Shown: positions 28,427-57,258, counted from the whole stretch's first letter. The stretch is 60,434 bases of DNA, filler included, from 8 parts of 8 records of this genome joined end to end with filler, not necessarily neighbours in it, one strand, 5' to 3'. The notes: a model not told the origin generated them from the letters alone. Numbers and translations: made by a program.

Positions 28427-28440
28427 GTAAAGGAACAACC

Positions 28441-28562
28441 GTGTACGAACATAATGAAAACCAGCGAATATTAATCGTTGATGATAGGGTGGAAAACATC
28501 GACGTTCTTATGGAAGTTCTTGATGAACAGTATATGGTTATTGCGGCAAGAAATGGAGAAAA
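28441..28562 (+). CDS. Response regulator, N-terminal fragment
   Basis: AAGGA RBS; GTG start; RILIVDDRVENIDVLMEVL...AARNGE. Confidence 0.75.
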
Positions 28563-28662
28563 NNNNNNNNNNNNNNNNNNNNNNNNNNNNNNNNNNNNNN
28601 NNNNNNTTAATTAATTAANNNNNNNNNNNNNNNNNNNNNNNNNNNNNNNNNNNNNNNNNNNN
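28563..28662. other. Artificial contig linker
   Basis: 44 N + TTAATTAATTAA + 44 N. Confidence 0.99.
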
Positions 28663-28987
28663 ATTTCTGAGAATATTTCGCAAGCTGTCCCTGTGTGGGC
28701 AGACTCATGTCGATAGCGCCGAGGATGTTCTGTTCCAGAACTTCCGGTGGTGCACCGAGCTGGTTATTGGGGAAGATGGAAACCGTAATGGCACCGCCGG
28801 TTCTTTCCTCCACGGCTTCGGCAAACATGATGCAGGCTTCATTGCCCGTATGGGACTCGTTTGCGAAGTGTCCGATTTTCAGTTCGATGGGCTCAGGTGC
28901 GGCCTCCGGGCTTTCGTCGGCACCTGCTCCGAAGCAGAATGCGGCGAGGGATGCCAACAACATCAGAGATAAGAGACTTTTCTTCAT
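28663..28987 (-). CDS. TRAP transporter substrate-binding protein (DctP family), partial
   Basis: AAGGAG RBS; signal peptide; FAEAVEERTGGAITVSIFPNNQLG...GAIDM. Confidence 0.88.
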
Positions 28988-29010
28988 AAGATACTCCTTA
29001 GCTTCTCTAT

Positions 29011-29026
29011 TGCACGATTCATGCCA
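29011..29026 (-). promoter_or_regulatory. Putative sigma54 promoter of the TRAP gene
   Basis: Minus strand TGGCAT-GAATC-GTGCA; candidate enhancer palindrome TTGCAATTTCTGCAA near 29114-29128. Confidence 0.65.
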
Positions 29027-29287
29027 CAAGGCTCCGTGTAATTCAGCATGCATTATTTTGTTACTCTAAAAGTATTTAAATAAGTAACCGAGAATCTGTC
29101 CGTTGCCTCCTGATTGCAATTTCTGCAATCACGGTGCAAGATGTGCGCAGTGCTTCGAAGATTGGGGAATAGCAGAGACTAGAAAGAGCCCATGGCTCCT
29201 GGCCGCTGTTTGCAGCCGCGAGAATGGTGATTCCCGGTTGATTTTCGGCCTTCCCCAATCTGCGATGCACTGGGTAAGATCTGCAGC

Positions 29288-30971
29288 CTATTCCGGCATC
29301 GAGAAGAACGTGATTCGGGTGCGAGCGCCCTTCGGTTCATTGTCTTCCAGTTCGATCTGCGCACCGTGGGCAGCCAGTACCTGATAACAGATGGACAGAC
29401 CGAGTCCGGTACCGTTTTCTTTTGTAGTGAAATAGGGATCAAAAACCCTGTCGATAACACCTCTGTCGAAGCCCGGTCCGGTGTCCGTGATATTCACAAC
29501 CAGGTCTCCATCCCGACCGCTTGTCAGACAAATTCAATGACATCTCCTTCTCCGGTCATTTCAAGGGAATTGGTGAGGATATTCGTCATCACCTGCTCGA
29601 TTTTCAGCACATCGAAGTAGAAACAATCCCTCCGGGCGTCGGATTCGAACCGGACAGCCACGCCCTTTTCAGCACCCAGCAGTTCAAACTTTCTATGGAC
29701 GTTCCCCAACAGCCTTTCCATGGAAAACCTTTCCAGGCTCAGCTCATTCGGTTTGGCGATTTCTAGGATCTCCCGAACGAAGCGGCCGGCATTGGCGATT
29801 TCGTGACTGATGATATCTTCGTATTTCCGGTTATTTTCCTTGTTCTTCGATTGGATCGCCATCTGTATCACCTGAAGGGGATGGCGGATTTCATGGGCCA
29901 TTCGGGAGGAAATCCGGCCGAGGAAACTGAATCGATCATCTGTACGCAGTTGAATGTTCCGCTTGTTCAGCATATTGAAGGCATTGGCCAGGGACTGAAG
30001 CTCATCATTGGTCTTCACAGATATCTCGTTGTTGAAATCTCCCTGAAGCATTTTGTTCACCATTTCGGTGAGAGAGACGATGGGATTGGAGATAAGTTGA
30101 GATATCCCGATGGAAATCACACTGATCATGACAATGATGAGAATCATGATGAGGATGTAGAATCGGATGAAGGCTCCATGCTGGAAGAACAGGGCGTCTC
30201 TACCGATGCTGCCGACTAGTTTCCAGTTGTTGATGAGTGTGGTGACAAAGATACTGCGGTCTTTTCTGTGCTGGTTGGTTGTATGAACCTCACCCCAGGC
30301 GTCATGCTCCGTTTCGCCCATGAGACTGATGTCCGAGTGGGCGATAATCCGGCCTCCAGCATCGCCGCCGGTGTGCTGCGAGATGTCGACAAGGGCGATG
30401 TCATCGAACATATCGTAGGTGTAGTAGCGAAGTAGTCGTCGGAGCTCCGATAAATCGATCGATCCACCGAGCAGGCCGGTGACACGTCCGGCTTTCTTGA
30501 CCGGAACCGCGAAGATAACGATTCCTTCCAGTGCCGGGTCATAGCGCTGGTCGGGCACATAGTACATAAACAGGAGCTCCCCCGTGAAAAACCGTTGGAA
30601 ATCCTCATAACCGGTGATTGTTCCACTGTGGTTCCCGGTGCTCCAGTAGTCACCATTTTCGGCGAAGAACCAGAAGTGTTCGAAGTCAAAGGATTGATTG
30701 CTCCATCGCTGCAGCAGATATTCCCGGTATCGAGTCTGCGCTCCTTCGTTGAAGGTTTCCGACCCAGCCAGTATCATCAGCTCCCGGACTCTACCGGAAA
30801 CCCAATCGCTGAGCACCCGGGAGAGATTCAGCATCTGCAGGTCCTTCTTCTCGATCATTGATGCTTCATAGGAGTTCCGGTAGGTGATGTAGGCGTAGCT
30901 GGAAAAGATGATGTAGATGCTGAGTGTGGGGATGAGTACCTGAAAAAAACCCGGTACCTGAGGTGTTTCAT
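29288..30971 (-). CDS. Membrane sensor histidine kinase (Cache-like, HAMP, HisKA, HATPase); indels near 30948 and 29530
   Basis: ATG overlaps the upstream stop (ATGA); MAHEIRHPL, NILTNS, DTGPG, FTTKENGTGLGL. Confidence 0.88.
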
Positions 30972-32305
30972 CGTTCCAGCTTGTAATACAGTCCCCGCTG
31001 GGAGATTCCCAGCGCTTCGGCGGTGGCCTTTTTATTACCTTCCAGCATATCAAGAGCCCAGTTGATGTAGGAATCCTCCAGTCTCTGGAGGGGCACCAGT
31101 CCTATTTCGTCGAACTTCATCGGCAGGGTTTTCAGAGATTCCAGGAAGAGTGATTCTTTCCGGATGGAGTCCCCTGTCTCAACGATGACGGCCCTTTCGA
31201 TACAGTTCCTCAATTCCCTGATGTTGCCCGGCCATGGGTACTCCAGAAGTGCTTCCCGGGCCTCCGGAGAGAATCGGCATTTCCTGCGGGACAGCTTCAG
31301 GCACATCTGCGAAAGAAGCCAGTCCGACAGGATGGGAATATCTTCCCGGCGCTCTCTCAGCGGCGGAATCATCAGGGGGAAAACGTTGACTCGGTAGTAA
31401 AGGTCTTCCCGAAACGATCCCTCACGGCATTTATCCGCGAGAATCTCATTGGTCGCGGCGATGATCCTCACATTGAGTTGAATCCTCTTGTTGGAACCCA
31501 GGCGGGTGATTTCTTCTTCTTGAAGGAACCTGAGGAGTGATACCTGAGCTTTGGGTGACATCGCCTCGATTTCGTCGAGGAACAGGGTGCCGCCGTCGGC
31601 GAATTCAAGTTTTCCCATCTGGTCCCTGGAAGCCCCGGTAAAAGCTCCCTTCACGTACCCGAACAGCTCACTTTCCAGCAGGTTCTCCGGCAGGGCACCA
31701 CAGTTGATAGGCACAAAATTGCTGTCCTTCCGTGAGCTGCCCTTATGAATGAGTCGGGCCAGAACCTCTTTGCCGGTACCGGTTTCTCCCTGAAGCAGGA
31801 CGGTTGAGTTGACGTTCTTCAACGGCCCGATTTTTTCCAGCAGGGAAAGATACGCTGCCGAACGACTATCGAAGCAGTACTCGTCATTCTTGTCCATTTC
31901 CTGAGACAGGAAACGGTTAGTTGTTTTCAGTTCTCCGTGATCGATTGCTTTCTCGATAATAATCAGGAGTTCGTCGATCTGAATGGGTTTGGTCAGGTAG
32001 TCAAAGGCGCCGAGTTTCAATGCTTCAACAGCGTTCTCGATGCTGCCGAAGGCGGTCATCATGATGAATTGGCTATCGAAATGACTTTTATTGCAGAGGC
32101 CGAGGAGCTCCAGTCCGTTCTTCCCCGGCAGCACAAAGTCCGAAACCACCACCTGGTACCGGTAGTCGTTTAACCGTTCCTCCGCCTCTTCATAGGAATG
32201 CGATATGTCGACGGTGTATCCTTTCGGAAGCAGCAGATCACGGATGATCGCAGCCAGAGACACATCGTCATCGACAAGGAGTATTCGGATTGTTCTCTGA
32301 TTCAT
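30968..32305 (-). CDS. Sigma54-dependent response regulator (NtrC family)
   Basis: REC domain; GETGTGKE; ESELFGYVKGAFTGA; WPGNIREL; C-terminal HTH. Confidence 0.95.
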   Translation of the reverse strand: MNQRTIRILLVDDDVSLAAIIRDLLLPKGYTVDISHSYEEAEERLNDYRYQVVVSDFVLPGKNGLELLGLCNKSHFDSQFIMMTAFGSIENAVEALKLGAFDYLTKPIQIDELLIIIEKAIDHGELKTTNRFLSQEMDKNDEYCFDSRSAAYLSLLEKIGPLKNVNSTVLLQGETGTGKEVLARLIHKGSSRKDSNFVPINCGALPENLLESELFGYVKGAFTGASRDQMGKLEFADGGTLFLDEIEAMSPKAQVSLLRFLQEEEITRLGSNKRIQLNVRIIAATNEILADKCREGSFREDLYYRVNVFPLMIPPLRERREDIPILSDWLLSQMCLKLSRRKCRFSPEAREALLEYPWPGNIRELRNCIERAVIVETGDSIRKESLFLESLKTLPMKFDEIGLVPLQRLEDSYINWALDMLEGNKKATAEALGISQRGLYYKLER

Positions 32306-34243: not shown

Positions 34244-34343
34244 NNNNNNNNNNNNNNNNNNNNNNNNNNNNNNNNNNNNNNNNNNNNTTAATTAATTAAN
34301 NNNNNNNNNNNNNNNNNNNNNNNNNNNNNNNNNNNNNNNNNNN
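34244..34343. other. Artificial contig linker
   Basis: 44 N + TTAATTAATTAA + 44 N. Confidence 0.99.
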
Positions 34344-34675
34344 GAATGCTCTCGGAAGAGGGTTTTTCTACAGGCTCGTTAGCTGTGAAGAATATGGGAA
34401 CATTCATATGTTCTGATTGCCTGTTCCCCCTTACAGGGCGCAAACACCAAATCAGACGTCATGCCAAGCTTGCAGGCCATCCCGTTCTGGGGGATCACAG
34501 GTACAGTTTAAAACTGGCCGTGGAGTTTATCAGGACCCGTCATACCTTTTCCCGTCAGGCCCTTCATTCCCTTTCTCTGGAACCGGAACTTCCCGGCACA
34601 CATCAGACCAGACGCTTTGAATCCGCCATCCCTTCCGAATTCCTGCGCATTATGGAAGACGATAAAGTTGCATAA
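34344..34675 (+). CDS. RluA-family pseudouridine synthase, C-terminal fragment
   Basis: TGRKHQIRRH...GHPVLGDHRY...RQALHSLSL. Confidence 0.8.
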
Positions 34676-34788
34676 AGTATCTTGGGGGGAACCAGGACGG
34701 GTCGTCCCCTTTGAGACGGGCTGTTTCTTTAACAATGGGAAGGCGTTACGGGGAGAATTCTGCGGTCTGAAAATGTCCCACCTACCCG

Positions 34789-34959
34789 TTGGAGTTCGGG
34801 GGATAGTGTTTTCGGGTCAGGCGTGCAAAGTTGCAAACTTTTAAAGGCGAAATCCCAGGGAGGCAGTGTTGAAAGATTGGAACTTGAAAACGGCTAAGTA
34901 GACGTAGTTGATCTGTTGACCTGGAAGCCCCGGCAACACGCAGCTCATCCAAACTCCAA
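34789..34959 (+). ncRNA. Candidate rod-shaped ncRNA (6S-like architecture)
   Basis: Nested complementary blocks TTGGAGTT/AACTCCAA, GTGTT/AACAC, GGTCAG/TTGACC, TTTTAAAG/CTTGAAAA, followed by a terminator. Confidence 0.35.
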
Positions 34960-34962
34960 AAC

Positions 34963-34990
34963 AAAAACCCGACCTCGTGCCGGGTTTTTT
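34963..34990. terminator. Bidirectional-type rho-independent terminator
   Basis: AAAAACCCG-ACCTCGTGC-CGGGTTTTTT. Confidence 0.7.
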
Positions 34991-35156
34991 AATTAAAAAG
35001 TATGATGTTCGGCATAGAGGTTGCTCATCAGTTAGGGGATTCAAATGAAGGAGGTTGCAATAGGATGGCAAGGGTAGCCAGATTGCAACTTGTGCTTTTC
35101 TCGCTGCCGGTGGTAGCAGTTCGGGCATTTCTTGGCATCAAAAAAGTGACATTAGC

Positions 35157-36344
35157 ATGGATAAGGCAGAGTTTATAAGCCGGTTTTTCATTGACAAATC
35201 ATTGGCAGAAAATATCGGTTTCAATCCTTATTTTCAAAATATCGAAAGCGGAATGAGCGGGCGAATTCAAGTTCAGGGAAAGAGCCTGATAAATCTTGGA
35301 ACGAACGATTACCTTGGCCTTTCAAACAAGCCGGAAATCAAGAAAGTTGCTTTGAAAGCCATGGATGAATTCGGCGTGAGTATGTGCGGGACGCCAATTG
35401 TCATTGGCCAGAGCACTCTTAACCGCAAGCTGGAAAATAAGTTAGCTAGTTTTTTTAAACAGGAGGATGCGCTTGTATATCCCTCCTGTTACCAGTGCAA
35501 CACCGGCATTTTTAATACCCTGACGAATGAAGAAGATATCATCATCTTTGATAAGGATATTCATTCCTCGCTTATGAATGGAATTGCCCTGACCAAATCC
35601 AAATGGCGGACATTCCCGCATAACGATCTGGGCAGGCTGGAAGACATTTTAAAGAAAACGCAGGGTCACCGCATGCGTTTCATTGTTTTTGAAGGGCTTT
35701 ACAGCACTGGAGGCGATTATCCCGATCTGGCGCAGATTATACAACTGGCAAAAAAATATGACGCTTTCACCATTATAGACGATTCGCATGGCGTTGGTAT
35801 TCTCGGGCAGACGGGTCGAGGGGTAGTGGAAGTGTATAATGAATTTGAAGGCATAGACCTTATTACTTTCTCGCTGGGTAAAGCTATCGGCACCTTTGGC
35901 GGCGCTATGGCAGGAAGTGAAAAGATTGTCGATTACTTTCGTTATTCCTCGCCGATGTATTTTTACTCGACTGCATTGCCGCCAGGAATTGCTGCCGCTA
36001 CCATTGAATCTCTTGGCTATATCAATCAGGCGAATGAGGAGAGAGAGCGCATAAAGGGGTTTGCCGGGAAAGCCTATGCAGCCCTTAAATCGATGGGCTA
36101 TACGCTCTCGGTCAGCGATACTCCGCTTTTTTCAGTGATTTCAAAGACTTCGGAAGAGACTTTCCTGCTCACCAAAAAACTGTTCGAAAAGGGTGTATAC
36201 ACCGTCCCATTCATACCGCCAAGCGTTCCGAAAAACTCCCCGCGTATCCGGTTGACGTTTAACGCTTATTTGTCAGAAATTGAGATTGATCAGGCTATAT
36301 CAGTATTTGAGGAAATTAAGAAGGAATGCCCAAATATTATTTAG
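35157..36344 (+). CDS. PLP-dependent alpha-oxoamine synthase (serine palmitoyltransferase/BioF/KBL family)
   Basis: NPYFQNIES, NLGTNDYLGLS, HSSL, FPHND, DDSHGVG, SLGKAIG (PLP Lys), PPSVPKNSPRIR. Confidence 0.9.
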   Translation: MDKAEFISRFFIDKSLAENIGFNPYFQNIESGMSGRIQVQGKSLINLGTNDYLGLSNKPEIKKVALKAMDEFGVSMCGTPIVIGQSTLNRKLENKLASFFKQEDALVYPSCYQCNTGIFNTLTNEEDIIIFDKDIHSSLMNGIALTKSKWRTFPHNDLGRLEDILKKTQGHRMRFIVFEGLYSTGGDYPDLAQIIQLAKKYDAFTIIDDSHGVGILGQTGRGVVEVYNEFEGIDLITFSLGKAIGTFGGAMAGSEKIVDYFRYSSPMYFYSTALPPGIAAATIESLGYINQANEERERIKGFAGKAYAALKSMGYTLSVSDTPLFSVISKTSEETFLLTKKLFEKGVYTVPFIPPSVPKNSPRIRLTFNAYLSEIEIDQAISVFEEIKKECPNII

Positions 36345-37246
36345 TTATGAACCCGACCTGTTGTAGCGGGAGAAGCCGCAGGCATTTCGATTCAATCATC
36401 TCCTCTTTTCGGCAGGCTGGTGAAGCCGAATGCCATTACACTACCGGTTATGAGGATGCCACACGTGTGGCTTGTCAGGCTATCAGGCAGGGCTTTGATA
36501 TCATAGTGGCCGTTGGCGGCGACGGCACTATTAATGAAGTTCTCAATGGCTTTTTTCTGGAAGCGGATTTGAGCTCGAAGGCGAAGCTCGGTGTTGTTCA
36601 TGTTGGCACCAGCCCCGATTTTAACCGCTATCACAAAATCCCCACAGATATTGGGGCAGCAATTGAGGTCATCAAAGAGGGGAAAACCAAAAGGATTGAT
36701 CTCGGAAAAATCGCTTTTAGCGATTTGCACGGACAAGAGGTTACCCGTTATTTTGCCAGTAACGCCAATATCGGCCTTGGTCCTATAGTTGCCGACAAGG
36801 CCAATTCCCGGCACCGTAAATATCTTGGTGATATTCTGGGGACGCTTGTCGCCACTCTTGGCTCTCTGGTTCAATTCCGCCCTGTCACTCTATCGGCAAA
36901 TATCGATGGCCATACTGCTATTCTCAAGGAAATGGTAAATGTCACCATCGGCAAAGACCCATACATAGCGTCGGGCATGCGGGTATTTCACCATATCGCA
37001 CCGGACGACGGGAAATTGTATCTGCTGTCTGTACAGCATAAAGGGCTACTCCCCATGTTAATGCACATCCCGCATCTCTACATTGGCGACTTCCTGAAAT
37101 TTGAAGGAGCTAGCGTCCGATATATCAAAAAGATTAAAGTTGAAAGCCATGAACAGTTGCAGGTCGAGTTTGATGGCGATGTCAAGGGGCATCTCCCTGC
37201 CACAATAGAAATAACCCCAAAAGCAATAGATGTGATTGTACCTTGA
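36326..37246 (+). CDS. Diacylglycerol/sphingosine kinase family protein (YegS/DAGK_cat)
   Basis: NP, VAVGGDGTINEVLNG, DLG, PDDG, EFDGD; overlaps both neighbours. Confidence 0.9.
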   Translation: MPKYYLVMNPTCCSGRSRRHFDSIISSFRQAGEAECHYTTGYEDATRVACQAIRQGFDIIVAVGGDGTINEVLNGFFLEADLSSKAKLGVVHVGTSPDFNRYHKIPTDIGAAIEVIKEGKTKRIDLGKIAFSDLHGQEVTRYFASNANIGLGPIVADKANSRHRKYLGDILGTLVATLGSLVQFRPVTLSANIDGHTAILKEMVNVTIGKDPYIASGMRVFHHIAPDDGKLYLLSVQHKGLLPMLMHIPHLYIGDFLKFEGASVRYIKKIKVESHEQLQVEFDGDVKGHLPATIEITPKAIDVIVP

Positions 37247-40200
37247 AAATATTAGTTACAGGCGCAAGCGGTTTTTTAGGCTCGCATATCGTGGGCAAGC
37301 TTCTCGAAGACGGTCACAAGCTCAGATCCCTTGTACGCCGGGATAGCGATTTGAGCTTTTTGCCCCTTGAAAAAGTTGAAATCATACAGGGAGATTTGAT
37401 CGAACCGGGTAACCTTAACGAAGCCATAAAGGGCTGTGATCTTGTTGTCCACTCCGCTGCCAGAGTTTCCGACTGGGGAGATTATCAGAGCTTCTACAGC
37501 GCAAATGTTATCGGCACCCGCAACCTGCTAAATGTCGCAAAACGAAGCGGGATCAAGCGCGTTATTTTGATAAGCAGTAATGCGGTGTTAGGTGAGGAAA
37601 ATTGTACTAGGTCAAAAAAGGAAAGCGATCCTTATAACCCCACAATGCCCTATCTTTCCCGCTTTTTTAAGTGCCCGATGAATTTTTACCGGGAAACCAA
37701 GGCGCAGCAGGAAAAGGAAAGCATCACTTTTTGCGAAGAAAACAATATTTATCTGACTGTTCTGCGTCCGGTTTGGGTCTACGGCGAAAGGGAGTTTCAT
37801 TCCGGGCCATATGAATTCTGCCGGACGGTTCTGAGTGGCATGCCGGTTTTGCCGATGGGAAACGGCAACCGTCTGCACTGCGTCAATGTGAAAGACGTTG
37901 CAAGGGCAGTCAGCCTTGCCATTGAGAAAGAGTTGGATGGCGTACGGATTTATAATATCGGCAATGAGGAAGCCGCCAAAACCAGAGATTATTTCAACCT
38001 CTTTTGCCGCAGTCTTGGAGTTAAGCCGCCGCTATATCTTCCTTTCTGGTGTTTTTATCCACTCGGTTTTCTTCTGGAAGTTCTGGCGAGATTGTTTAAT
38101 TCGTCAAAGCCTTTTCTCCTGACTCGCGCAAGGGTGAATTTTTTTACTGCAACAATATTTACGATATTGGCAGAGCCAGAGAAGAACTTGACTTTACCGC
38201 CCAGATATCACTTGAAGAGGGCATAGAGGAGGCTGTGGCATGGTGGCGGGATAACGGGTTTTTTGACAGGAAACGCAAACAAAAAAATATCAAAGGCATA
38301 TCCCGCATCATTCTCGATGCGCGAATAGCGACCGCAGTTCTGACACACTATCTGAAACAGGTATTCAAGCGGGAAGTAACTCTGGGGCAGTACCTTCAGT
38401 TCATAAAAAGGCTGCTTGTTTTTTCTCGCTTTTTGAAAAACTACAAGGCGGTTAAAATCAACGGCGGTTATAAGCTGCATCTCTATTTACCGGCCTTTGG
38501 CACCAAAGCTTTTTATACGGCGCTTGATAAATTCGTGAGCGGAAAAACGGTGCCTCTCATGTCGTTTATTCCATTACCAAAGTCTGCCCTTGCCATTGCG
38601 AGCATTGCTACCAGAAACTGGATGTGAACAAGAGCATGCCAAAGGAATTGATGCTGGAGACAGCAAAGAAAATTCAGGATGCCGGAGTCTCACTGTTTGA
38701 TATTGAAGGAGGTGAGCCTTTCGCCCGTTATGAGCGACTGCTGGCAGTTGTTGAGGCACTGGATGAACGCAGCGAAATTTGGATAAACGCGACCGGACAT
38801 CTGGCGAGTTTCGAACAACTCGTGGAGCTGAAGCAGGCAGGATTGTATGGTTTGATGGTCTCCATCCATCACCCGGAAGCTGAAAAACACGATACATTTT
38901 TGGGTAGAAAAGGTTCTTTTCCGACGGCAATTAAGCTGATCCGGATGTGCCGCAGAATTGGTCTGTCCACCGTCATCAATTGCTGCCCGTCAAAGGAAAT
39001 GATCGAGGACGGCGGTTTGCAAAGTATAATGGAAATTGCGGACGGGCTTGGATGTTCTTATGTCCAGTTCATTCACGAAAAGCCATCGGGAAATTGGGCT
39101 CATCGCGGTTCAAGTATGATGGAACCGGAATTTCTCGAAAATCAGATAAAACAACACATCCGGTACAACAAGGCGGCCCGATACCCGCCCGTTTTATTTC
39201 AGATTTTCGAGGCAAGTTCTCTTGGATGTACTGCCGGAGGCGTTGAGCGGTTCTACGTGAATGCCGATGGTGAAGTGCAACCTTGCGAATTTCTCAATAT
39301 ATCTTTCGGCAATGTCCGTGATGAGAACTTTGAAGTTATCTATGAAAGGATGCGCAAGTTTTTTCCGGCAGCAACTCAGGACTGGCTTTGCAATACGGAG
39401 AATAGTCTCATTCAGGAATTTATCAAAGAGCGTGGCATTACACGCTTTCCCATTGAAAGAGATCTGACGATTGAACTCGTTAAAAAATTCCAGTCCAAAA
39501 AAGATGTTCCCTTTTTCAAGGATCTGAACTTGAGCCATAGCGTCCAAAGCATAGCATGGGCTTATATTAAATCCATGAGGCCCTACCTTTTCTTTCTTTC
39601 CGGTATGGCCGGATGGACAGGGATTGTTTATGCCGGGGGCGAAACGTCTCTGTTAAAAACCGTGCTTATCCTGGCCGTCGTTTTTCTGGGATGGGGGTTC
39701 AATCAGGTTGTTAATGACATCCTCGGGTTGAAAGAGGACCGGGTGAACGCTCCGCACCGCCCACTGGTAAGTGGTGAATTGCCGTTGAACTGGGCAATAG
39801 CCATTACGGCAATTCTCTTTTCAGCAGGGCTTGCGGTAACAAGCTATCTCAATCCTTATGCGGTTATGATCTATCTGGCAGTTTTTGTACTGAATATTTT
39901 TTACGAGTGCATGAAGGGGATCCCGCTTGCCGGAAACGCGGTATTTGCGCTGTTCATGCCGCTCTGCCTTTATTATGGGGCTATGAGCGCAACTGATGCG
40001 GGGCCGGAAATTCTGGCCGATAGTAGTTTATGGCCGGTTGCCACCGCGTTCTTTTTGGTCAGTTTTGTAATGTGCTTTTTACGTACTACAAAGATTATGA
40101 AGGTGACAAGCTTGCGGGTAAAAAAACCCTTGTGGTCCTTCTTTCGCCGGAAAAAGCACGATTTCTTAATTTTCCTTTCAGCCTGCTGCCCTTCTTCCTG

Positions 40201-40470
40201 CTGTTCGTTCTCCCGTTTGAAGCAAATCTGTACTTTACGGTTTCCATGCTTTTGAATTTCATGATGTTTCAATATACGGCTTGGCTGTTTTTCAAAGATA
40301 GGGCAGGCGAGAAGACTTATTATAATCTGAAATGGAATTTCAGCGCCGCCGTATTGTTCGAGGTTTCCTTTATAATGCTGGCGGATCCACAACTGGGGGT
40401 AATGCTATATGGTTTAGGTTTTTTTGGCGTATTGGCTCTTTTCCATCTGCACAAAGATCATTTAAGCTGA
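37243..40470 (+). CDS. Predicted three-domain fusion: extended SDR (NAD-dependent epimerase/dehydrogenase) + radical SAM/SPASM + UbiA prenyltransferase; three homopolymer indels (~38140, ~38545, ~40078)
   Basis: TGASGFLG and YRETK (SDR); CPCHCEHC = CxxxCxxC at 38585-38608, EGGEP and GCTAG...DGEVQPCEF (radical SAM); NDILGLKED..N..HRPL and YKDYEGD (UbiA). The radical SAM-UbiA junction is in frame with no repair. Confidence 0.75.
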
Positions 40471-40494
40471 CATTTGAAGACAGGAGAAAATACT

Positions 40495-40889
40495 ATGAGC
40501 AAATTTATCAAACCTCTTTTTCTGGTAGGCGGGCTGTACGACTTTTTAATAGGTCTGGCTTTTCTGATCATTCCGTACACTATTTTCGAATTTATCGATG
40601 TCGCCCTTCCCAGCCATATCGGCTATGTTCAGTTTTCGGCGGCATTTCTAATGATTTTCGGCCTGATGCTTTTTAGCATAGCCCGTGACCCGTTAGCCAA
40701 TAAAAACCTCATTTCCTACGCTGCCATGATAAAGATCGCTTACTGTGCGATCGTCGGCGGGCATTACGTGATCGGCAACATGCCGCTTCCTTGGGTTTTT
40801 TTGGTATTGCCGATTTCTTGTTCCTGCTGGCTTTTGTCTGGGCGTATAGGGAAATAGGAAAGAACGTAGAGGCACATGGTCAGGCTTGA
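40495..40889 (+). CDS. Small four-helix membrane protein, poly-T indel near 40800
   Basis: AGGAG RBS; four hydrophobic segments; repaired C-terminus WVFFGIADFLFLLAFVWAYREI. Confidence 0.7.
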
Positions 40890-41221
40890 ATGATTGCCGG
40901 ATGACAAAAAACAGAATAGAAGTATTGCCTGTGGAAAAAGAAGGACTGTTCCCAGGTGTGAGGAAAATTCATAATTCGGAAGAAGTCGGGTATGAAAAGA
41001 TGCCGACATTAGTCTCAATCTTTACGCAGCACCAGTTTCCTCCTATATGGTTTCACTGAATCTCAACCAGTCCCTCTAAATGAAAATGGGTGGCCCCTAT
41101 TTGACCGACCCAGATTCTATGCTTGCGACGGTCAAAAAAAAGTTCCCGGCGCCAACGAGTGGTATATGATGGTTAACTGGTGGGTACGCATCTTAATCTT
41201 AAGCGATAAGGAGCAAAAGTT

Positions 41222-41317
41222 ATGAGCAAAGGCCAGGACACCAAAAAATCAGATAAAAAAGAACCGGCAAAAACCATGAAAGAAAAAAGGGCTGCAAAAA
41301 AGGAAAAAAAAAGCTGA
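41222..41317 (+). CDS. Small lysine-rich protein (31 aa)
   Basis: AAGGAG RBS 8 nt upstream; MSKGQDTKKSDKKEPAKTMKEKRAAKKEKKS. Confidence 0.6.
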   Translation: MSKGQDTKKSDKKEPAKTMKEKRAAKKEKKS

Positions 41318-41527
41318 AAAGAAGTAAAAAATTAGAGGGCAGTTTTGGGGATAGTACCTAGATTTTTCTCTTCAGTGGAAAGAGCTGGAGATAGGTATGC
41401 TTGCCCCTGTACCCCCCGAAGATCGAATCCCTATTGGTCATGCCTGCGCCCTGATCTCGCCTGCAGGATGTGCTCTGTGCTAAGATCATTCCCCACTTAA
41501 AAAATAACGGATAAGGACTGACCTGGA

Positions 41528-43830
41528 ATGCTTGAAATAGAAAGAGATGCGACCATCCGGATTCTGGTCGATGAGACCGGCCTGAAGCGCGGGCCGGTGG
41601 AACAGACCGTGGCCCTCCTTGAAGAGGGGGCGACGGTCCCTTTTATCGCCCGTTACCGCAAGGAGGCGACGGGGAGCTCGATGAAGTACAGATTCGTCTG
41701 CTGCAGGAACGTCTCGGGTATCACACCGAGCTCAACGAGCGCCGCCGGACGATTCTTAAATCGATCGAGGAGCAGGGGAAGCTGACCGAGGAGTTGCGGT
41801 TGAAAATCGAGGCCACCCGCCAGAAAACCGAGCTGGAGGACCTCTACCTGCCGTTCAAGCCGAAGCGTCGCACCAAGGCGTCGATTGCCAGGGAGCGGGG
41901 CCTGGAGCCGCTTGCCGAGCAACTGTTGGCGGCACGTGGGAGCGGAGACGCGGCCCTGCAGCTGGCGGAACCTTTTGTCAATCCCGAACTGGAGGTTGCC
42001 ACGGCCGCCGATGCCCTGACAGGGGCCGGTCATATCCTTGCCGAACAGTTCGCCGAGAACGCCGAGGCACGGGCGCTGGTCCGCGAGTTGACATGGCAGG
42101 AGGGGCTATTCTGTTCCCAACCGGTCAAGGGCAAGGAAGGCACGGTCAGCAAGTATGAAATGTACTACGATTTCAAAGAGCCGATCCGGCAGGTTCCTTC
42201 CCATCGGATGCTGGCCATGCGCCGGGGCGAAACGGAGGAAGTGCTGCGGCTGCGCATCGAAGCACCGGAGGAAACAATCCTCAGCTGTCTCCAGGGACTT
42301 TTCGTTGAGCCTGAAAGCCGCTTCGCCGAGTTGCTTCGGGAGATCATCCTTGATGCCTACAACCGTCTGCTGGCCCCTTCCATCGAGGTGGAATTGCGCC
42401 TGCAGGCGAAAAATGCCGCCGATGACGAGGCGATCCGGGTCTTTGCGGAAAACCTGCGTCATTTACTGCTCGCCGCGCCAGCCGGTAGCCGTAAAGTTCT
42501 GGGCGTCGATCCCGGACTGCGGACCGGCTCCAAGCTGGCGGCCGTCGATGCGACCGGCCGTTTTCTCGAACACATGACGATCTATCCCCATGCCGGAGGC
42601 GAAGCCAAGGTTGAATCCGCCAAACGTGAGCTGTTGCGTCTTGTCGAGGCACACGCTATGGAGATGGTGGCGATCGGCAACGGGACCGCCGGGCGTGAAA
42701 TGGATCAGTTTGTCCGCCAGTGCCTGAAAGAAGCGGGTTTGAAACCGCAGGTAGTCATGGTCAGTGAAGCCGGCGCCAGCGTTTATTCGGCGTCCGATAT
42801 CGCCCGCGAGGAATTTCCTGATCTCGACCTGACCGTGCGCGGCGCTATCTCCATTGCCCGGCGTCTGCAGGATCCCCTGGCCGAACTGGTCAAGGTCGAT
42901 CCCAAGAGTATCGGGGTCGGCCAGTATCAGCACGATGTCGGTCAGACGGCGTTGAAAAAAGCCCTCGATGAGGTGGTGGAATCCTGTGTCAACTATGTCG
43001 GGATCGACCTGAACACCGCCAGTTGGGCGCTCCTCAGCTTTGTCTCGGGGATCGGCGAGTCGCTGGCCAAGGCGATTGTTCGCCTGCGCGACAGCCAGGG
43101 TACCTTTGTCCGTCGCGAGCAGTTGCTCGAGGTGCCGCGCTTAGGAAAGAAGGCGTATGAGCAGGCCGCCGGGTTTTTGCGCATCAGAAATGGCGAACAG
43201 GCGCTGGACAATACAGCGGTGCATCCGGAGCGCTACAAGTTGGTGGCGCGGATGGCGGCGGACCTCGGTGTCTCCCTGCCGGCGCTGATTGCCGAACCGA
43301 TGCTCCTCGATAAAATCAGGCTGGAGCAGTATGTCGGTACCGATATCGGCCTGCCGACGCTGCGTGATATTATCAGCGAATTGAAAAAGCCGGGCCGTGA
43401 CCCGCGCGAGACGTTCGTTGCGACCGGTTTCCGTGAGGACGTCATGGAGGTCAAGGATCTCAAGGAAGGGATGTCTCTCAACGGTATCGTGACCAATGTC
43501 GCAGCATTTGGGGCTTTCGTCGATATTGGCGTTCACCAGGACGGTTTGGTGCATGTCAGTCAGCTCGCCGACCGTTTTGTCAAGGACCCGAATCAGGTGG
43601 TCAAGGTGGGCCAGCCGGTTCAGGTCAGGGTCTTGGCGGTTGATCTGGAGCGTAAGCGGATCGGCCTGACCATGCGCAGCGGGGCGCTGGAAAAACCGGA
43701 AAAAACATCGGAGCAAAGCCAGCGACCCCAAAAACCGCAGCCAGAGAAAAAGATGGCCAAGCCACAGTCCGATCTGGCCGCCGCGCTGGAAAAATCCGGA
43801 TTCCGGGTGAAAAAAGGAAAGAAAGCTTAG
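41528..43830 (+). CDS. tex: Tex/YhgF RNA-binding transcription accessory protein, poly-G indel near 41672
   Basis: EGATVPFIARYRKEATG(E)LDEVQIR, LEDLYLPFKPKRRTKA, GVDPGLRTG, VGQYQHD, S1 domain FGAFVDIGVHQDGLVHVS. Confidence 0.95.
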
Positions 43831-43835: not shown

Positions 43836-43933
43836 ATGTCGAACGAAAAAACATCAAAGCCTGACCCGATCTACATGACACCCGCCTGTGCCCGGAAATT
43901 GAGGGCGGAACTCAAAGAGACTCTTTACCAGCT
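43836..43933 (+). CDS. Transcription elongation factor GreB-like, N-terminal fragment
   Basis: PIYMTPACARKLRAELKE resembles the GreA/GreB N-terminus; adjacent to tex. Confidence 0.55.
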
Positions 43934-44033
43934 NNNNNNNNNNNNNNNNNNNNNNNNNNNNNNNNNNNNNNNNNNNNTTAATTAATTAANNNNNNNNNNN
44001 NNNNNNNNNNNNNNNNNNNNNNNNNNNNNNNNN
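43934..44033. other. Artificial contig linker
   Basis: 44 N + TTAATTAATTAA + 44 N. Confidence 0.99.
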
Positions 44034-45088
44034 TCTTCTTTTACGATTTTTCCATTTTTAAAAGTTTGCACAACACTAAAATCATCTAGAGTATCAACTA
44101 TTAAAAAGTCGGCAATATATCCTGGGGCAATAGCACCCAAACGGTCAATCTTGTAGCATTCGGCAGTATTTAAACTAGCAATACGTATAGCGGTAATAGG
44201 ATCCATACCGTTTGCGATTGCAATTCTTATATTATTATCTATATGTCCATTTTGGATGATATCTTCAGGGTGACGGTCGTCTGTACAAAACGTACATCTG
44301 CGCTCTGTATGTGCGTTGACACCATCTATCAAAGTAGCTAAGTTTTTTGCTGCGCTGCCTTCACGTATAGCAATATACATTCCTTTTTGCAGGCGCTCAA
44401 TCATCTCAGCATAAGTGCTACATTCGTGGTCGGTTTTAACGCCACTAACGATATATGCATTTAGAGCTTCCTCTGTAAGACCAGGACCATGACCGTCTAT
44501 AATCTTATTATAATCGGCAGCAAGATTTATTTTATCTAAAATACCCTTATCAGCATTAACTACGCCAGGGTAATTCATCATTTCACCAAGGCCTAAGACG
44601 CGCTCGTGGTCCATCATTGATTGTAGCTCGCTTGATTCCAATATAGCTCCCGAGGTTTCGAAACCAGAAGCTGGAACGCAGGAAGGAAGCATCATATATA
44701 CAGTTAAAGGTATGTCAGATGTGCTATCTAACATATATTGAATACCAGCAATACCGCAAACATTTGCAATTTCATGGCAATCTGCAATTACTGTTGTTGT
44801 ACCGTGTGGCAATACTGCACGTGCAAACTGATATGGAGTGGAGAAAGATGACTCGATATGGACGTGCGAGTCGATAAGACCAGGAACGATGTATTTTCCA
44901 CCAGCATCCACTACATTTGAGCAATTGTAGTCACCAATCCCAAGAAAGACACCATCTGCAATCGCTAAGTCTCCTTCAATAACGCCATGGGTAAATACAT
45001 CAACTACACGGCAATTTTTCACCACCAAGTCAGGTTCTATTTTTTTATTTGCGGCTTTTATTCTTCTATCTAAATTTTGTTGTTTCAA
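44034..45088 (-). CDS. ade: Adenine deaminase, partial
   Basis: PGLIDSHVHIESS, GTTTVIADCHEIANV, GLGEMMNYP, DGH, TDHEC, REGSAAKNL, CTDDRHP; AAGGAG RBS before TTG. Confidence 0.93.
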
Positions 45089-45406
45089 AATAACTCCTTA
45101 CTCACAGAGAATAATTACTATTGCCTTTAAGTTCAAATGCTATAAATTTTTAATCAAAAATACAACTATAAGCTTATAGTGTAATTAAAGTTCTCTACTG
45201 CACACTTAATATTATTACTCCGTGCATCATATCAAATATTATACAATTTATCAATTCATTATACACTTTAAACTGACTGATTAGATTTATGCATAATAAG
45301 CAAACCACAAGCTATTAAAAGGATTTACAGGCTTTGTATATTTAATAATAATTAAGACGGTGATAGTTTGATTGTTTAGCAAATAAAATATAAAAAAGCT
45401 CGCCCT

Positions 45407-46291
45407 TTACACTTCATTTTTAATAAGTTTTGCCATAACTACAAATCGTCCGTTTTCGCTGGTTGTACATGTAGAAAGGGTAAGTACTATATCATCGGGT
45501 GAAAAAGTAGGAGCCGTTTTATACATGGATTCTTGATAGCATGTCTTTAAAAATGAAACCCACATTTCATCATGAGGGAAATCTGTATCTATATAATAAA
45601 AGTCCGTTGTTGTATCAAATACAGCAAAAACTTCCCAATTTTTCGAACCGCTTAAAGTATCAAACTGAATAATTCTATGCTCGTTGAAAAAATCTTCATC
45701 TGAATAAGATATAAGACCTTTAAACATTGTCCCGTTTTTCATCCTGTGACCATATAAAATTATATTTCTTGTTATAGATAAATCTAGTGAATCGCATCTA
45801 TAGTCCATGAAAATTGAACCACGTATGTTTGGTAATTTTACAAATGACCTGTTCATATAAAACTTATTATCATCAGCCTGTACAACTGGATAATCCACTT
45901 TTGTTCCACTGATTTTAATATACCCAACGGTATCCTTGTTTTTCTTAATGTATTCGTCTAGATAATCTATAGATCGTGTTGGCTCTACAGCGTTTATAGT
46001 TGGGCTTAAATCATCGGTTTCGATATCTGTTTTTTCTGTTGCCTTCAAATTGGATTCTGCTATATAAGAATCGTTAGAATCAATTTGTGTTTTTTCAGTC
46101 TCATTATTCTTTAACGAAATAGACTGGAAAAGATAAACACTAAAAAAACCAACGGTTAAAGAAACTATGCCAACTAAAGATATCCAAAATATTTTTTTGG
46201 TTTTGAAGATATCAGTGCTATCTTTAATTTTTATAAATTTGAGTTTTAATTTGAGCCCTAAAATTCTAAGCCAAGTAATAAAATTATCCAT
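45407..46291 (-). CDS. srtB: Class B sortase
   Basis: N-terminal TM helix; YPVVQ..DN.FY; IILYGHRMKNGTMF; LTLSTC...RFVV. Confidence 0.9.
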   Translation of the reverse strand: MDNFITWLRILGLKLKLKFIKIKDSTDIFKTKKIFWISLVGIVSLTVGFFSVYLFQSISLKNNETEKTQIDSNDSYIAESNLKATEKTDIETDDLSPTINAVEPTRSIDYLDEYIKKNKDTVGYIKISGTKVDYPVVQADDNKFYMNRSFVKLPNIRGSIFMDYRCDSLDLSITRNIILYGHRMKNGTMFKGLISYSDEDFFNEHRIIQFDTLSGSKNWEVFAVFDTTTDFYYIDTDFPHDEMWVSFLKTCYQESMYKTAPTFSPDDIVLTLSTCTTSENGRFVVMAKLIKNEV

Positions 46292-46501
46292 AACCGATAC
46301 TAAATATGTATTCCTTATCTATAATTATAAATCTGATTTTATGTTATTTCTGTAATTATTATAACAGTGCATCAAAGAGTAAGTAAATATTTAATTAATA
46401 TTTTTTTAATTAAAAATATGGTATAATGTAGAAAATTAGCTTACAAAAACTAAAAAAAATAATTCTTAAATATATATACAAAGTAAAGCTGAGGAATTGG
46501 C

Positions 46502-49500
46502 GTGAAAAAATCAATATCGATCCTTTTAGTGGCTTGCATAATTTTGAGTGGAATATTGCCACACACTGCTTATGCCAATGATGGAGACGACCCTATTCCG
46601 TTTGTACAAAAAGACCCTGATACCTATTGGTCTAATCAAGATGTAACTCTTACTCTTACAGATGACGATGCTGTTGATATTTATTATCAAAGTAAAGATG
46701 CCGATGAAGATAATTGGTCTGCTTTGGTAAAATACAACGCTCCTTTAATATACTCACAAAATGGATCAATCACAATTAATGCTCTATCTAAAGATATGAA
46801 CGGTGATACTTTAGAAGAACAAAATGACATATCAATAAATATTGATAAAACCAACCCAACACTTTCAGTTCAAGTGAACAACCCAGTATGGACAAGAGAA
46901 AATATTACAATATCATTTGAAGCGGATGATACTTTTAGTGGTGTTAATGCAATATGCTTAGAGGATGGCACGGTTGTAGCATCGGTAGATTCAAATGATG
47001 ATGATGATATTTTTACGGCATCATACATAGTTTCAACTAATGGCGATTATACATATTATGCAGTGGATAATGCTGGAAACAAGTCAAGTAATATTCAAGT
47101 TCAAGTTTCAAAGATCGATAAAAACTCTCCAACTGATGCGCCAGACATATCAGCTTCACCAGAAAGCGCTTCATGGGTTACAGGACCTGTGCAGGTTACT
47201 TTGGATTGGACTGACAATACACCAGCAGGTGAAAGCCAAGAAAGAGCTCAATATAGCGATGATGGTAGTACGTGGGAAGATTATGTTTCTCCTCTTACAC
47301 TATCGCAAGAGGGAACACACACCATTTATGCAAGAACAAGAGATTTAGCAGGGAATAAATCGGATATTAACCAACTAACGATAAAAATTGATAACCAAGC
47401 ACCGCTATTAACTGCATCAGGTATTGGTTCCTCTTGGACAAATAACGATATAGTGGTAACGCTAAATGCGTCTGATACTACAAGTGGTGTTGCTGGTATA
47501 TATTCTAGTGATGGTACACAGTTAACAGCAAGCTCAAGTATTGAAAGAACGTTTACTGAAAACACAGAATCTGCTGTGATCTATTATGCTATGGATAATT
47601 CAGGAAAGAAATCTGATGATTATCCAGTTAATATAAGCAATATTGATAAATCAGCGCCAAATGCGCCAAACATATCAGCCACCCCTAGTGGATGGTCGCA
47701 TCATAATGTTACGATTGAGCTTTCTGAGGTTGCGGCGGCAGTAAACCAAAGCCCTGAGCAAAGACAGTATAATGTTAATGATTCAACATGGGAAAATTAT
47801 GAATCTTCTTTTGAGGTTTCACAAGAAGGAGAATATAGTGTTAAAGCAAGAACTAAGGATGAAGCAGGAAATACATCATCGGAAAATAGTGCTACAGTAA
47901 AAATAGATAAAACTGATCCAACAATAGCAGATGTAAGCTATACTCCAGATTCAGATAACCAAGGTAAAGGAACGGTATCAGTAACTATATCCGATGCTCT
48001 TTCTGGAATATATGAGAAAAAATATTCAATAGGCGAAAAAGCGGTTAGTTATTTTGATGATGAGGGACAAGGAATTGACATTCTTGATTCATCATTTGTA
48101 ATAGATGGTGCTGATGGCGACGAGTATACGGTTTATGCAAAGGATAACGCTGGTAATGTAACTATTGTAAATGTACACGACCAAGTTGCTAGTTTAAATA
48201 CTTATCCTTTAATAGACGACATTTCTGATAAAAGCATTGATGAAGACGCTGGGATTCAAACTATAACTATAACAGGAATATCAGATAACGAGACAACAGA
48301 CCACAATGACTTAGATGTAGACTATGATTATTCGGGATCGATTCTACAAAATGTTTCGTTAGTTGATAATGATGATGGTACGGCAACGCTTACATATAAG
48401 CCGATAGAAAACAAAAACGGTGAAGATTCGATTACAATAAATGTAACGGATGAACACAATTTAACTTCTAGTGTAACGGTAAAGATAACTGTTAATGCAG
48501 TGGATGATATCCCTGTTGCGGTTAGCGATACAAAAAATGCAAATGAAGGCGATATTGATATCGATATTGCTGTTTTAGGAAATGATTCAGATGTTGAGGG
48601 TAATGTTTTTATAAACAATTTTGATGTGTTAACAGCAAAAGGCGGAACAGTTGAAAAAAACATTGCAGGTGATGGATTTGTTTATAATCCTAAAAACTCA
48701 AATTTTTCTGGTATTGATACCTTTACATACGATGTAATAGATGAAACTGGAAACATCAGTAATACGACAACTGTTACAATAAATGTTCAAAACGAAAACG
48801 ACTTACCTATAGCTGTTGATGATAATCACGAGCTTAACGAAGATCAAACTGTTGCAATTGATGTTTTGCATAATGATATTGATGAAGACTTAGCATATGT
48901 TGATGATGAAATATTAATTATTTCGATAGTTGATTATGATGATAGTAGCGTAATAATTTTTGATGATAGTGATGCTGAAAATCCTTTAGACCCAAGCACT
49001 TCTGTCCAAGTTGAACATGGTGTAATCACATATGATAGTGATAACAGAGATTTAATGTTTACTCCAGACAGCAACTATTATGGCAGTTTTAGTTTTGATT
49101 ATACAATTACCGATATGGCTGGAGAGTCTTCGCAAGCTACAGTTTATATTTCTGTTTTAAGTATAAATGATGAACCTGAATTCACTGGATTAGCAGATCC
49201 ACCAACTTATACGTTTAATGAGGACACAGCTACGTATGATATTGATTTTAGTATAAGTGATGTTGAGATAAGTGACGCGAATGGTTTGACAATAAGAGCT
49301 GTTTCGAAGAACACATCTGTTTTGTCAAATTCAGAGATTGAAATTTTAGGGCCGGATGATGAGGATGGCGCTACAACACTAAGATTAAGTCCAAGAGCAA
49401 ACGTATATGGTACAGCGCAAATCCAGTTGGAGTTATCCGACGGTAATACCATAACTTCTGAAATACTGACAATTGAAATAGTAAATGTAAACGACCCGCC

Positions 49501-54653: not shown

Positions 54654-54753
54654 NNNNNNNNNNNNNNNNNNNNNNNNNNNNNNNNNNNNNNNNNNNNTTA
54701 ATTAATTAANNNNNNNNNNNNNNNNNNNNNNNNNNNNNNNNNNNNNNNNNNNN
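54654..54753. other. Artificial contig linker
   Basis: 44 N + TTAATTAATTAA + 44 N. Confidence 0.99.
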
Positions 54754-54850
54754 CACACAACTCGAAACAACCTGTAACTCGAAACTCGCAACACATAACT
54801 CGAAACTCGAAACACATAACCCAAAACCCGAAACCCTTAACTTCCAACTC
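54754..54850. repeat. Degenerate heptamer tandem repeat
   Basis: Units such as CTCGAAA, CTCGCAA, CACATAA, CCCGAAA, CCCTTAA (consensus C-N-C-N-N-A-A), about 12 copies. Confidence 0.75.
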
Positions 54851-54852
54851 TT

Positions 54853-55758: not shown

Positions 55759-55812
55759 AGAAAATTTGCTTTTATTTAATTATAACAAGGTTGTAATTTC
55801 CATGTCAAACAT

Positions 55813-55820
55813 TACTTTTG
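55813..55820 (+). promoter_or_regulatory. Bacteroidota-type -7 promoter element
   Basis: TACTTTTG (TAnnTTTG) upstream of pyk. Similar elements lie upstream of mnmA (minus strand, ~59458-59465) and the GH28 gene (59551-59558). Confidence 0.5.
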
Positions 55821-55850
55821 CAAAACTTTTTTAATAAGTAAAAATAGTAT

Positions 55851-57254: not shown

Positions 57255-57258
57255 CAAT

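Follow-up and report, generated by a model that had tools for sequence, protein, structure and literature searches.

Does this genome encode a single protein in which a short-chain dehydrogenase/reductase (SDR), a radical SAM enzyme and a UbiA-family prenyltransferase are joined, or are these domains divided between genes? The question was raised by positions 37243-40470 of the window (the whole 60,434-nt stretch of DNA that was analyzed), in which an initial annotation made from the sequence alone had proposed a triple fusion of ~1,075 aa, hidden by frameshifts. Here we report that the frameshifts are single-base losses in the window, and that the triple fusion is almost certainly itself an artefact, in which a missing base hides a stop codon. 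The best overall explanation, and a very likely one, is that the corrected sequence holds two genes, one encoding an SDR::radical SAM fusion and the other a UbiA-family enzyme, within a lipid-type operon.

Reading frames from the SDR domain to the UbiA domain

Four open reading frame (ORF) pieces lie on the + strand of this interval, at 37243-38226, 38235-38627, 38624-40255 and 40030-40470 (frames 1, 3, 2 and 1, respectively). When compared with Pfam, the first piece matched Epimerase (E 1.9e-38) and 3Beta_HSD (4.3e-24), as expected of an extended SDR, and the second matched no family. The frame of the third piece contained Radical_SAM (1.5e-13), SPASM (8.4e-06) and the first 160 positions of UbiA (3.8e-18), with the last 90 positions of UbiA located in the fourth. 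Translation in shifted frames across the breaks recovered the SDR C-terminus and HVVYSITKVCPCHCEHCY, with one added base per frame change.

We found that 97% of the words sampled from the window were present in the public run X1. The evidence from this run is a single Logan short-read contig of 13,966 nt (depth 15.5) that covers positions 36900-40900 in one piece and that differs from the window by 0 substitutions and 5 gaps, each of them one extra base in X1 (Table 1). When the five bases were inserted by script and the ORFs were re-read, no substitutions or in-frame stops were found in any of the six genes of the operon. The window is thus a consensus with single-base losses in base runs, and the breaks are not real stops. 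The housekeeping gene tex, located 2 kb downstream, has lost a G from a G run after 41674, as judged against G001, a ~90% identical relative. Because tex is broken by the same type of error, it appears that the consensus drops bases in runs generally, and other ORF breaks in the window should be read accordingly.

These results bear out much of the initial annotation. The ORF listing and the X1 contig confirm that the four pieces are separated by single-base losses in runs. The T predicted at ~38140, which restores the SDR C-terminus, is present after 38138 in X1 and X3, and the T predicted at ~40078, which restores the second Asp motif of UbiA, is present after 40075 in X1. The SDR frame does run on without a stop into a further domain, consisting of a linker followed by a radical SAM/SPASM-type region. 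The base proposed at ~38545 had the correct effect on the frame, restoring the CxxxCxxC motif, but was assigned to an A5 run about 7 nt away from the true C at 38552.

Alternatively, the frameshifts could be real mutations, and the operon a decaying array of pseudogenes in the sequenced strain. A horizontally acquired insert with five single-base losses in 4 kb would be consistent with this, and acquired cassettes are often lost or inactivated. However, X1 has all five bases in a contig without substitutions over 4 kb, and X3 has the one that it reaches. In addition, every loss is in a base run, the same type of loss is seen in tex, and the six genes are intact once the bases are added. We consider a pseudogene array to be highly improbable.

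With all X1 bases in place, the first gene encodes 766 aa and ends in ...FFKDLELEP followed by TAG (window 39538-39540), and a second ORF of 322 aa extends from the ATG at 39504 (MFPFSRIWNL...) to 40470. With only the three repairs that had been proposed initially, a single ORF of 1076 aa is obtained. The G after 39525 restores the TAG at 39538-39540 in the radical SAM frame, and SDR::radical SAM and UbiA are therefore separate, overlapping genes; the earlier statement that the radical SAM domain runs in frame and without repair into UbiA holds for the window's letters only. The same organization was found in an independent JGI metagenome contig (L080), in which a 765-aa fusion gene ending in ...DLDLEK-TAA and a 318-aa UbiA gene overlap by 26 nt, the UbiA ATG being located 26 nt upstream of that stop. 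The L080 DNA reads GATCTGGATCTTGA at the position where the window has GATCTG-AACTTGA, and the R-I-W at the UbiA N-terminus, common to L080 and the window, is seen in the window only once the G has been inserted. The corrected window and L080 are 68% identical in the fusion over its full length, 67% in UbiA, 77% in the oxoamine synthase, 72% in the kinase and 69% in the small ORF.

Close relatives of a radical SAM+UbiA query were taken from a collection of 5.8 billion proteins, and the counts given here refer to 120 of them among the matches listed. The closest were 761-765 aa long and 69-73% identical, and they covered just 57-58% of the query. SDR and radical SAM families were found together in 19 of the 120 (761-805 aa), and PF01040 (UbiA) in none. 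Four relatives of 761-765 aa (P0001, P0002, P0003 and P0008) end in ...DLNLEK, ...ELGLGE, ...DLDLEK and ...DLGLDK, and these C-terminal ends coincide exactly with that of the corrected window fusion. From a library of 1.84 billion representatives, 150 proteins among the matches listed were considered. The UbiA part was matched only by 14 of these, which matched nothing else, were 171-323 aa each and aligned from about residue 5; the order SDR::radical SAM::UbiA was present in none of the 150. A search of 7999 candidates gave no match of >1001 aa at E<=0.001, although this result carries little weight. The stop in X1, the two genes in L080 and the lack of UbiA in the 120 relatives all argue against a ~1,075-aa protein. 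The impression that the architecture is an unfamiliar one stands for the triple form, which was not found among the relatives listed, and not for its SDR::radical SAM part, which these comparisons indicate to be genuine and recurrent.

For a genuine SDR::radical SAM::UbiA fusion of ~1,076 aa to exist, the window would have to be right and X1 wrong at 39525, the stop having been removed by a real 1-bp deletion. The window as written does have an unbroken frame from radical SAM into UbiA, and the base in question belongs to a run of just two G, where homopolymer errors are less typical than in the T5-T7 runs. Fusions of the opposite order, with UbiA first (P0121 and P0122), also make such a protein functionally plausible. 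However, 38552 (CC to CCC) is likewise a short run, and at the four remaining sites of disagreement with X1 the window is plainly in error, as the added bases restore conserved protein sequence. With the G, moreover, the fusion acquires the end seen in P0001, P0002, P0003, P0008 and L080 and UbiA gains its R-I-W, and no triple fusion was encountered among the 120 and 150 relatives listed or among the proteins of >1001 aa. We regard this possibility as very unlikely.

The limits of the run data count against the two-gene reading. Position 38138 is the sole one of the five sites reached by any run besides X1, and no other run reaches 38552, 39525 or 40075; runs X2-X4 cover 37304-37995, 38073-38468, 39546-39795 and short ends only, with X2 and X4 contributing only short or divergent pieces. 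X1 may be the source sample of the window, and hence not independent, and Logan contigs are themselves assemblies, so that the evidence consists of contigs and not of raw reads.

As the UbiA start lies inside the last codons of the fusion gene, the two genes are probably translationally coupled. Programmed frameshifting was also considered as a source of the fusion and was set aside, as evidence of a slippery site was neither sought nor seen and the overlap is an ordinary coupled stop/start arrangement. Had the finding been filed as it stood, a 1,075-aa architecture that does not exist would have entered the record. A junction that is in frame and needs no repair can still be an artefact when the consensus is error-prone.

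Table 1. Positions of the cassette genes, of the bases missing from the window and of the corresponding genes in L080 (window coordinates unless L080 is named).
Feature	Position	Strand	Details
Segment with the whole cassette	34668..41122	.	6.4 kb; absent from the close relative G001 (Desulfuromonadales metagenome-assembled genome)
Alpha-oxoamine synthase	35157..36344	+	First cassette gene; 395 aa; PLP-dependent, KBL/BioF/Spt-like; Pfam Aminotran_1_2 E 1.3e-46
YegS/DgkB-type lipid kinase	36326..37246	+	306 aa; Pfam DAGK_cat + YegS_C
SDR::linker::radical SAM/SPASM-type fusion	37243..39540	+	766 aa; TTG start; TAG stop 39538-39540; T/C/G after 38138/38552/39525 read
Linker	38250..38550	+	~100-aa helical N-terminal extension of radical SAM domain; conserved block ...YKLHLYLPAF..AFY...
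UbiA-family prenyltransferase	39504..40470	+	322 aa from ATG 39504 or 313 aa from TTG 39530, after G 39525 and T 40075
Small hydrophobic protein	40495..40889	+	ATG 40495; ~131 aa; ~4 transmembrane segments; T after 40795 read; truncated in window as written (ORF region 40474-40889)
Missing T	after 38138		T7 run; X1 contig, also contig of run X3 (different study)
Missing C	after 38552		CC in window, CCC in X1 contig
Missing G	after 39525		Window tctgaac, X1 contig tctGgaac; exactly at radical SAM/UbiA junction
Missing T	after 40075		T5 run; X1 contig; mends UbiA
Missing T	after 40795		T7 run; X1 contig; mends small ORF downstream of UbiA
L080 oxoamine synthase	3912-5099		First in L080 gene order
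L080 kinase	5081-6004		Second
L080 fusion	6001-8298		Third
L080 UbiA	8273-9229		Fourth
L080 small ORF			Follows UbiA; 128 aa

The SDR::radical SAM fusion and its UbiA-family neighbor

The N-terminal domain of the fusion, a predicted NAD(P)-dependent reductase of 3beta-HSD/HpnA/OleD-like type, belongs to the extended SDR family (PF01370, 132.7 bits vs a cut-off of 20.9). It has GASGFLG (GxxGxxG) at its N-terminus and the catalytic YxxxK, present in the window as Y-R-E-T-K, of which Y146 and K150 are invariant in 16 aligned fusion proteins. The nearest NCBIfam models were HpnA, OleD and SdmB, which are lipid-acting members of the SDR fold, and all scored well under their curated cut-offs; for the relative P0003, scores were 146.4 bits vs 367.65 for HpnA (TIGR03466) and 119.4 vs 580 for OleD (NF042422). 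The linker that follows matches no Pfam family. It is also found at the N-terminus of stand-alone radical SAM relatives of 420-440 aa, and between UbiA and radical SAM in P0121 and P0122. In an AlphaFold2 model of the L080 protein it is predicted to form helices 350-372 and 378-395 and a small sheet.

The radical SAM domain (PF04055, 51.7 bits vs a cut-off of 29.5) carries its CxxxCxxC motif in the stretch C-P-C-H-C-E-H-C, read in the frame that the C after 38552 re-establishes; C446, C450 and C453 are invariant in the 16 fusion proteins. The C-terminal region scores above the cut-off of the SPASM model (PF13186, 26.4 bits vs 21.5), the canonical pattern of which comprises seven Cys and two auxiliary 4Fe-4S clusters. 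Downstream of the radical SAM core, just three Cys are invariant (C325/C344/C379 in the stand-alone alignment, C661/C680/C715 in the fusion alignment), which makes a one-cluster 'twitch'-like region at least as likely as two clusters. By profile, the best solved relatives of the domain are SkfB (6efn, 3.6e-21), MoaA (1.7e-15) and PqqE (5.7e-11). It resembles these enzymes in its CxxxCxxC motif and its C-terminal, Cys-bearing auxiliary-cluster region, and differs from them in having three invariant Cys and not seven, a family-less N-terminal extension of ~100 aa and lipid-enzyme partners, with no gene for a peptide substrate. The archaeal, lipid-acting tetraether synthase (7tol) was a weak match (5.3e-05).

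The AlphaFold2 model of the 765-aa L080 fusion (pLDDT 76, pTM 0.54) consists of two folded halves. Its top Foldseek matches were all epimerase-fold proteins (best 3wj7, 2.5e-23, TMt 0.79) and are uninformative on the radical SAM part and the linker, and a look-up in the ESM Atlas gave best scores of 0.78 and 0.76, under the lead threshold. The protein is probably cytoplasmic and membrane-peripheral. Database SDR::radical SAM proteins (761-805 aa) have the same domain order, linker and C-terminal end as the corrected window protein, with no architectural difference, and are 45-73% identical to it over the radical SAM part. Two of them (P0024 and P0031, from Omnitrophica and 'bacterium' metagenome-assembled genomes) were deposited as 'NAD-dependent epimerase/dehydratase family protein', and two others (P0008 and P0013) bear the JGI name 'nucleoside-diphosphate-sugar epimerase/MoaA/NifB/PqqE/SkfB family radical SAM enzyme'. 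Judged by sequence, the corrected fusion is a member of this already deposited family, the names of which are automatic. A further protein (P0127; 1,467 aa) combines a radical SAM domain of the cassette family, including the N-terminal extension, with ~1,000 residues containing a DUF362 domain.

The product of the UbiA gene is predicted to be an integral-membrane transferase of 313-322 aa; free-standing UbiA homologues are 303-323 aa long. The two halves present in the window both score above the PF01040 cut-off (66.1 and 35.5 bits vs 34.2), and the intact L080 homologue reaches 98 bits. The initial annotation had described the first motif, N-D-I-L-G-L-K-E-D, as atypical. It does depart from the known type NDxxDxxxD in having Gly at the middle position, and this is typical of its family (N-D-x-x-G-x-x-E-D): N66, D67, E73 and D74 never vary in an alignment of 16 sequences, at least 90% of which have G70. 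With the T at 40075 added, the second motif is complete (K-D-Y-E-G-D) and of the normal type.

The nearest solved structure is the archaeal digeranylgeranylglyceryl phosphate (DGGGP) synthase 6m31 (residues 17-273 of the 318 of L080 UbiA, E 2.4e-14), and the best NCBIfam models were likewise those of DGGGP synthase (DGGGPS)-type prenyltransferases, at 66-89 bits vs curated cut-offs of 269-353. None of the curated NCBIfam prenyltransferase equivalogs was reached, including the DGGGP synthase equivalogs NF009521, NF009522 and NF009512, for which the homologue P0133 scored 66.4 vs 296, 76.1 vs 353 and 31.3 vs 278 bits. Unlike the context of archaeal DGGGP synthase, the cassette contains no geranylgeranylglyceryl phosphate synthase or glycerol-1-phosphate dehydrogenase. 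By analogy with that enzyme, a lipid phosphate bearing a free hydroxyl would serve as acceptor.

Conservation of the cassette and its possible product

The fusion and UbiA genes occupy the third and fourth positions in a compact operon of six genes that includes the oxoamine synthase, the lipid kinase, SDR::radical SAM, UbiA and the small protein with four transmembrane segments (4-TM). The oxoamine synthase did not reach the NCBIfam cut-offs of KBL (316.8 vs 460 bits) or BioF (310.5 vs 426), nor those of the serine palmitoyltransferase (Spt) models NF047600, NF047599 and NF047603 (283.8 vs 640, 262.2 vs 500 and 203.7 vs 670); it also matches a CqsA-type autoinducer synthase model (NF005526). 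Its nearest PDB entries are KBL (7v58, 1.1e-65) and Spt (8guh/3a2b, 8e-58). The kinase gene shares 19 nt with the preceding oxoamine synthase gene and 4 nt with the SDR gene that follows. Its product belongs to TIGR00147 (YegS/Rv2252/BmrU lipid kinase; 139.6 bits vs 118.65) and is nearest in the PDB to DgkB (2qv7, E 1.5e-26). The small 4-TM protein matched no Pfam or NCBIfam family; it is 69% identical to L080 9254-9640 and, by tblastn, ~50-54% identical to L006 9353-9727.

We then considered the company that these genes keep elsewhere. A single window protein used as query against genome contigs gave 75 pattern matches, none of them a relative. With the alignment of fusion proteins as query, 79 genome loci were obtained, of which L001-L008 are the best 8 of 79 for the radical SAM part. 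These are named as Planctomycetia, Desulfosporosinus, Clostridiales, Omnitrophota, Bacteroidales and Prolixibacteraceae, plus two records labelled 'bacterium' and 'metagenome'. UbiA, radical SAM, kinase, oxoamine synthase and SDR are clustered in 8/8 of these loci and also in L080 (9/9), and the nine loci span at least five phyla. L080 and the window have the same six genes in identical order.

Across the ten loci (L001-L008, L080 and the window), UbiA adjoins the radical SAM gene in seven, in either order. SDR and radical SAM are adjoining yet separate genes in L004, L006, L007 and L008, where the ORFs were listed across the junction, and in L001-L003 the SDR gene is several kb away from the radical SAM gene. 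As the two are separate in these loci, the fusion appears to be a lineage-specific state of an older partnership. Fusions of another kind were also found: P0121 (721 aa) is a UbiA-linker-radical SAM protein by Pfam, retaining the canonical N-D-x-x-D-x-x-x-D first motif, and P0122 (739 aa) has the same composition as judged from its sequence. Together with the adjacency in seven of ten loci, these fusions provide Rosetta-stone evidence that both enzymes share work. The cassette enzymes very probably act on one lipid-like substrate, as the 9/9 clusters and the UbiA-first fusions indicate; this part of the initial proposal stands, and the single polypeptide that was to carry it out does not.

Bacterial sphingolipid synthesis uses Spt, a CerR-type epimerase-fold reductase and bCerS, with sphingoid/ceramide kinases, among which a ceramide kinase has been reported from Caulobacter. 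The cassette is similar in bringing together an oxoamine synthase, an epimerase-fold reductase and a DAGK-fold kinase, a set of activities suited to making a phosphorylated long-chain amino alcohol. It differs in that the Spt models are not reached and in that no ceramide synthase or dedicated acyl-carrier protein was seen in the window cassette. A bacterial kinase of the DAGK fold, dhSphK1 of P. gingivalis, is known to phosphorylate dihydrosphingosine (PMC9045371).

We propose that the oxoamine synthase would condense an amino acid with an acyl thioester, giving a 2-amino-3-keto lipid, whose ketone the SDR domain would reduce to yield a sphingoid-like amino alcohol. The kinase would phosphorylate this amino alcohol. 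By analogy with DGGGPS, the UbiA enzyme might then link an isoprenoid chain to the lipid phosphate at a free hydroxyl or amino group, and the radical SAM domain could modify an unactivated carbon of this lipid in a reaction independent of oxygen. It is likely that SDR::radical SAM and UbiA share one substrate in a pathway, encoded by the operon, for a lipid or lipophilic metabolite. More tentatively, the product may be a phosphorylated amino alcohol of the sphingoid type that bears an isoprenoid chain in ether or N linkage and undergoes further modification by radical chemistry. It is possible, with the same reserve, that such a product represents a hitherto undescribed class of lipids, combining the logic of bacterial sphingolipids with that of archaeal isoprenoid ethers, and that the cassette has spread by horizontal transfer among anaerobes of many phyla. 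Radical SAM and UbiA have 0 occurrences in the main text of a survey of anaerobic marine sphingolipids (PMC11334938), as have UbiA, prenyltransferase, epimerase and oxoamine in a 2026 review of lipid-modifying radical SAM enzymes (PMC13459092). Literature searches, whose scope did not extend to subscription journals and supplements, gave no description of this gene set.

Several observations speak against this pathway. The function assigned rests wholly on gene neighborhood and superfamily likeness, and the Spt, KBL, BioF, HpnA, OleD and DGGGPS models all score far under their curated cut-offs. The oxoamine synthase resembles KBL and Spt equally closely, so that more than one amino acid and acyl substrate can be envisaged, and no acyl-carrier protein or N-acyltransferase was seen in the window cassette. 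The order of the steps and the radical SAM reaction are guesses. Most of L001-L008 add an OYE-type FMN oxidoreductase and a PurM/AIRS-like ATP-utilizing protein, and some a ketosynthase (the extra genes of the longer version in L006 are at 1113-2327, 4706-5722 and 5722-7002), and in L007 a DAO-type FAD oxidoreductase lies next to the cassette; the window and L080 are without OYE-type, PurM/AIRS-like, ketosynthase and DAO-type genes. Because of these extra genes in relatives, the product may differ between versions of the cassette.

The same extra genes are relevant to an alternative in which the cassette makes a small diffusible metabolite (a signal or antibiotic, such as a prenylated alpha-hydroxyketone or amino-ketone), ketosynthase, OYE and PurM-like genes being typical of natural-product clusters. 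Another version of this alternative would have a threonine-catabolic pair of threonine dehydrogenase (TDH) and KBL with unrelated neighbors. The oxoamine synthase scores best on KBL models and matches the CqsA-type NF005526, and some L-threonine dehydrogenases are epimerase-fold SDRs. However, the constant partners are a lipid kinase that passes TIGR00147, a DGGGPS-like membrane transferase and a 4-TM protein, and the SDR resembles the lipid-acting HpnA/OleD/SdmB and not threonine dehydrogenase. A distribution over many phyla at one copy per genome (one match in each of 4 genomes) also fits a structural lipid better than an antibiotic. We consider either version unlikely and favor a lipid-type pathway.

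Acquisition of the operon and its significance

The Tex protein encoded downstream of the operon is 93% identical to that of the Desulfuromonadales genome G001 (also recorded as L082). By blastn, G001:C7 80505-80760 corresponds to window 34413-34667 (91%) and G001:C7 80816-81037 to window 41123-41336. In G001 just ~55 bp separate these two matches, and relative to that genome the whole operon (34.67-41.12 kb) is therefore an insert. Its GC content is 0.45-0.48, compared with 0.57 in tex. The family-specific radical SAM was found in 0/201 genomes sampled from the order of G001 at E<=1e-40, and the same query detected 4/4 known carriers at E<=3e-71 as a positive control. We conclude that this Desulfuromonadales genome acquired the operon horizontally. 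At the ends of the insert there were no flanking direct repeats, tRNA-like targets or integrase. Within 34300-41600, promoter-like sites (9 vs 10.1 expected), terminator-like sites (8 vs 8.6) and repeats did not exceed chance.

Other parts of the window were noted in passing. As written, tex (41528-43830) is split into ORFs of 85 aa and 678 aa. At ~43.9 kb the GC content drops from ~0.57 to ~0.35, and similarity to G001 stops at 43,933. This low-GC part (43,930-60,434) encodes a sortase and a 2,735-aa Big_9/cadherin-repeat protein (46502-54709), as well as genes of housekeeping type, namely those of an XerC/D-type recombinase (54853-55758), a pyruvate kinase (55851-57254) and an MnmA-like tRNA thiolase (58229-59461); it represents either a large island of foreign DNA or an assembly chimera that joins two organisms. 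Upstream of the operon, 24818-32305 encodes a 1,202-aa hybrid sensor kinase (two SBP_bac_3, Hpt and receiver domains), a Cache/HAMP histidine kinase and a sigma-54 activator.

Its arrival as a single insert makes the cassette self-contained, and at 6.4 kb it is a convenient unit for heterologous expression and lipidomics. Its product may well be an undescribed prenylated amino-lipid. If this is the case, the product would bear on the question of the 'lipid divide' and could be an unrecognized biomarker in anoxic sediments.

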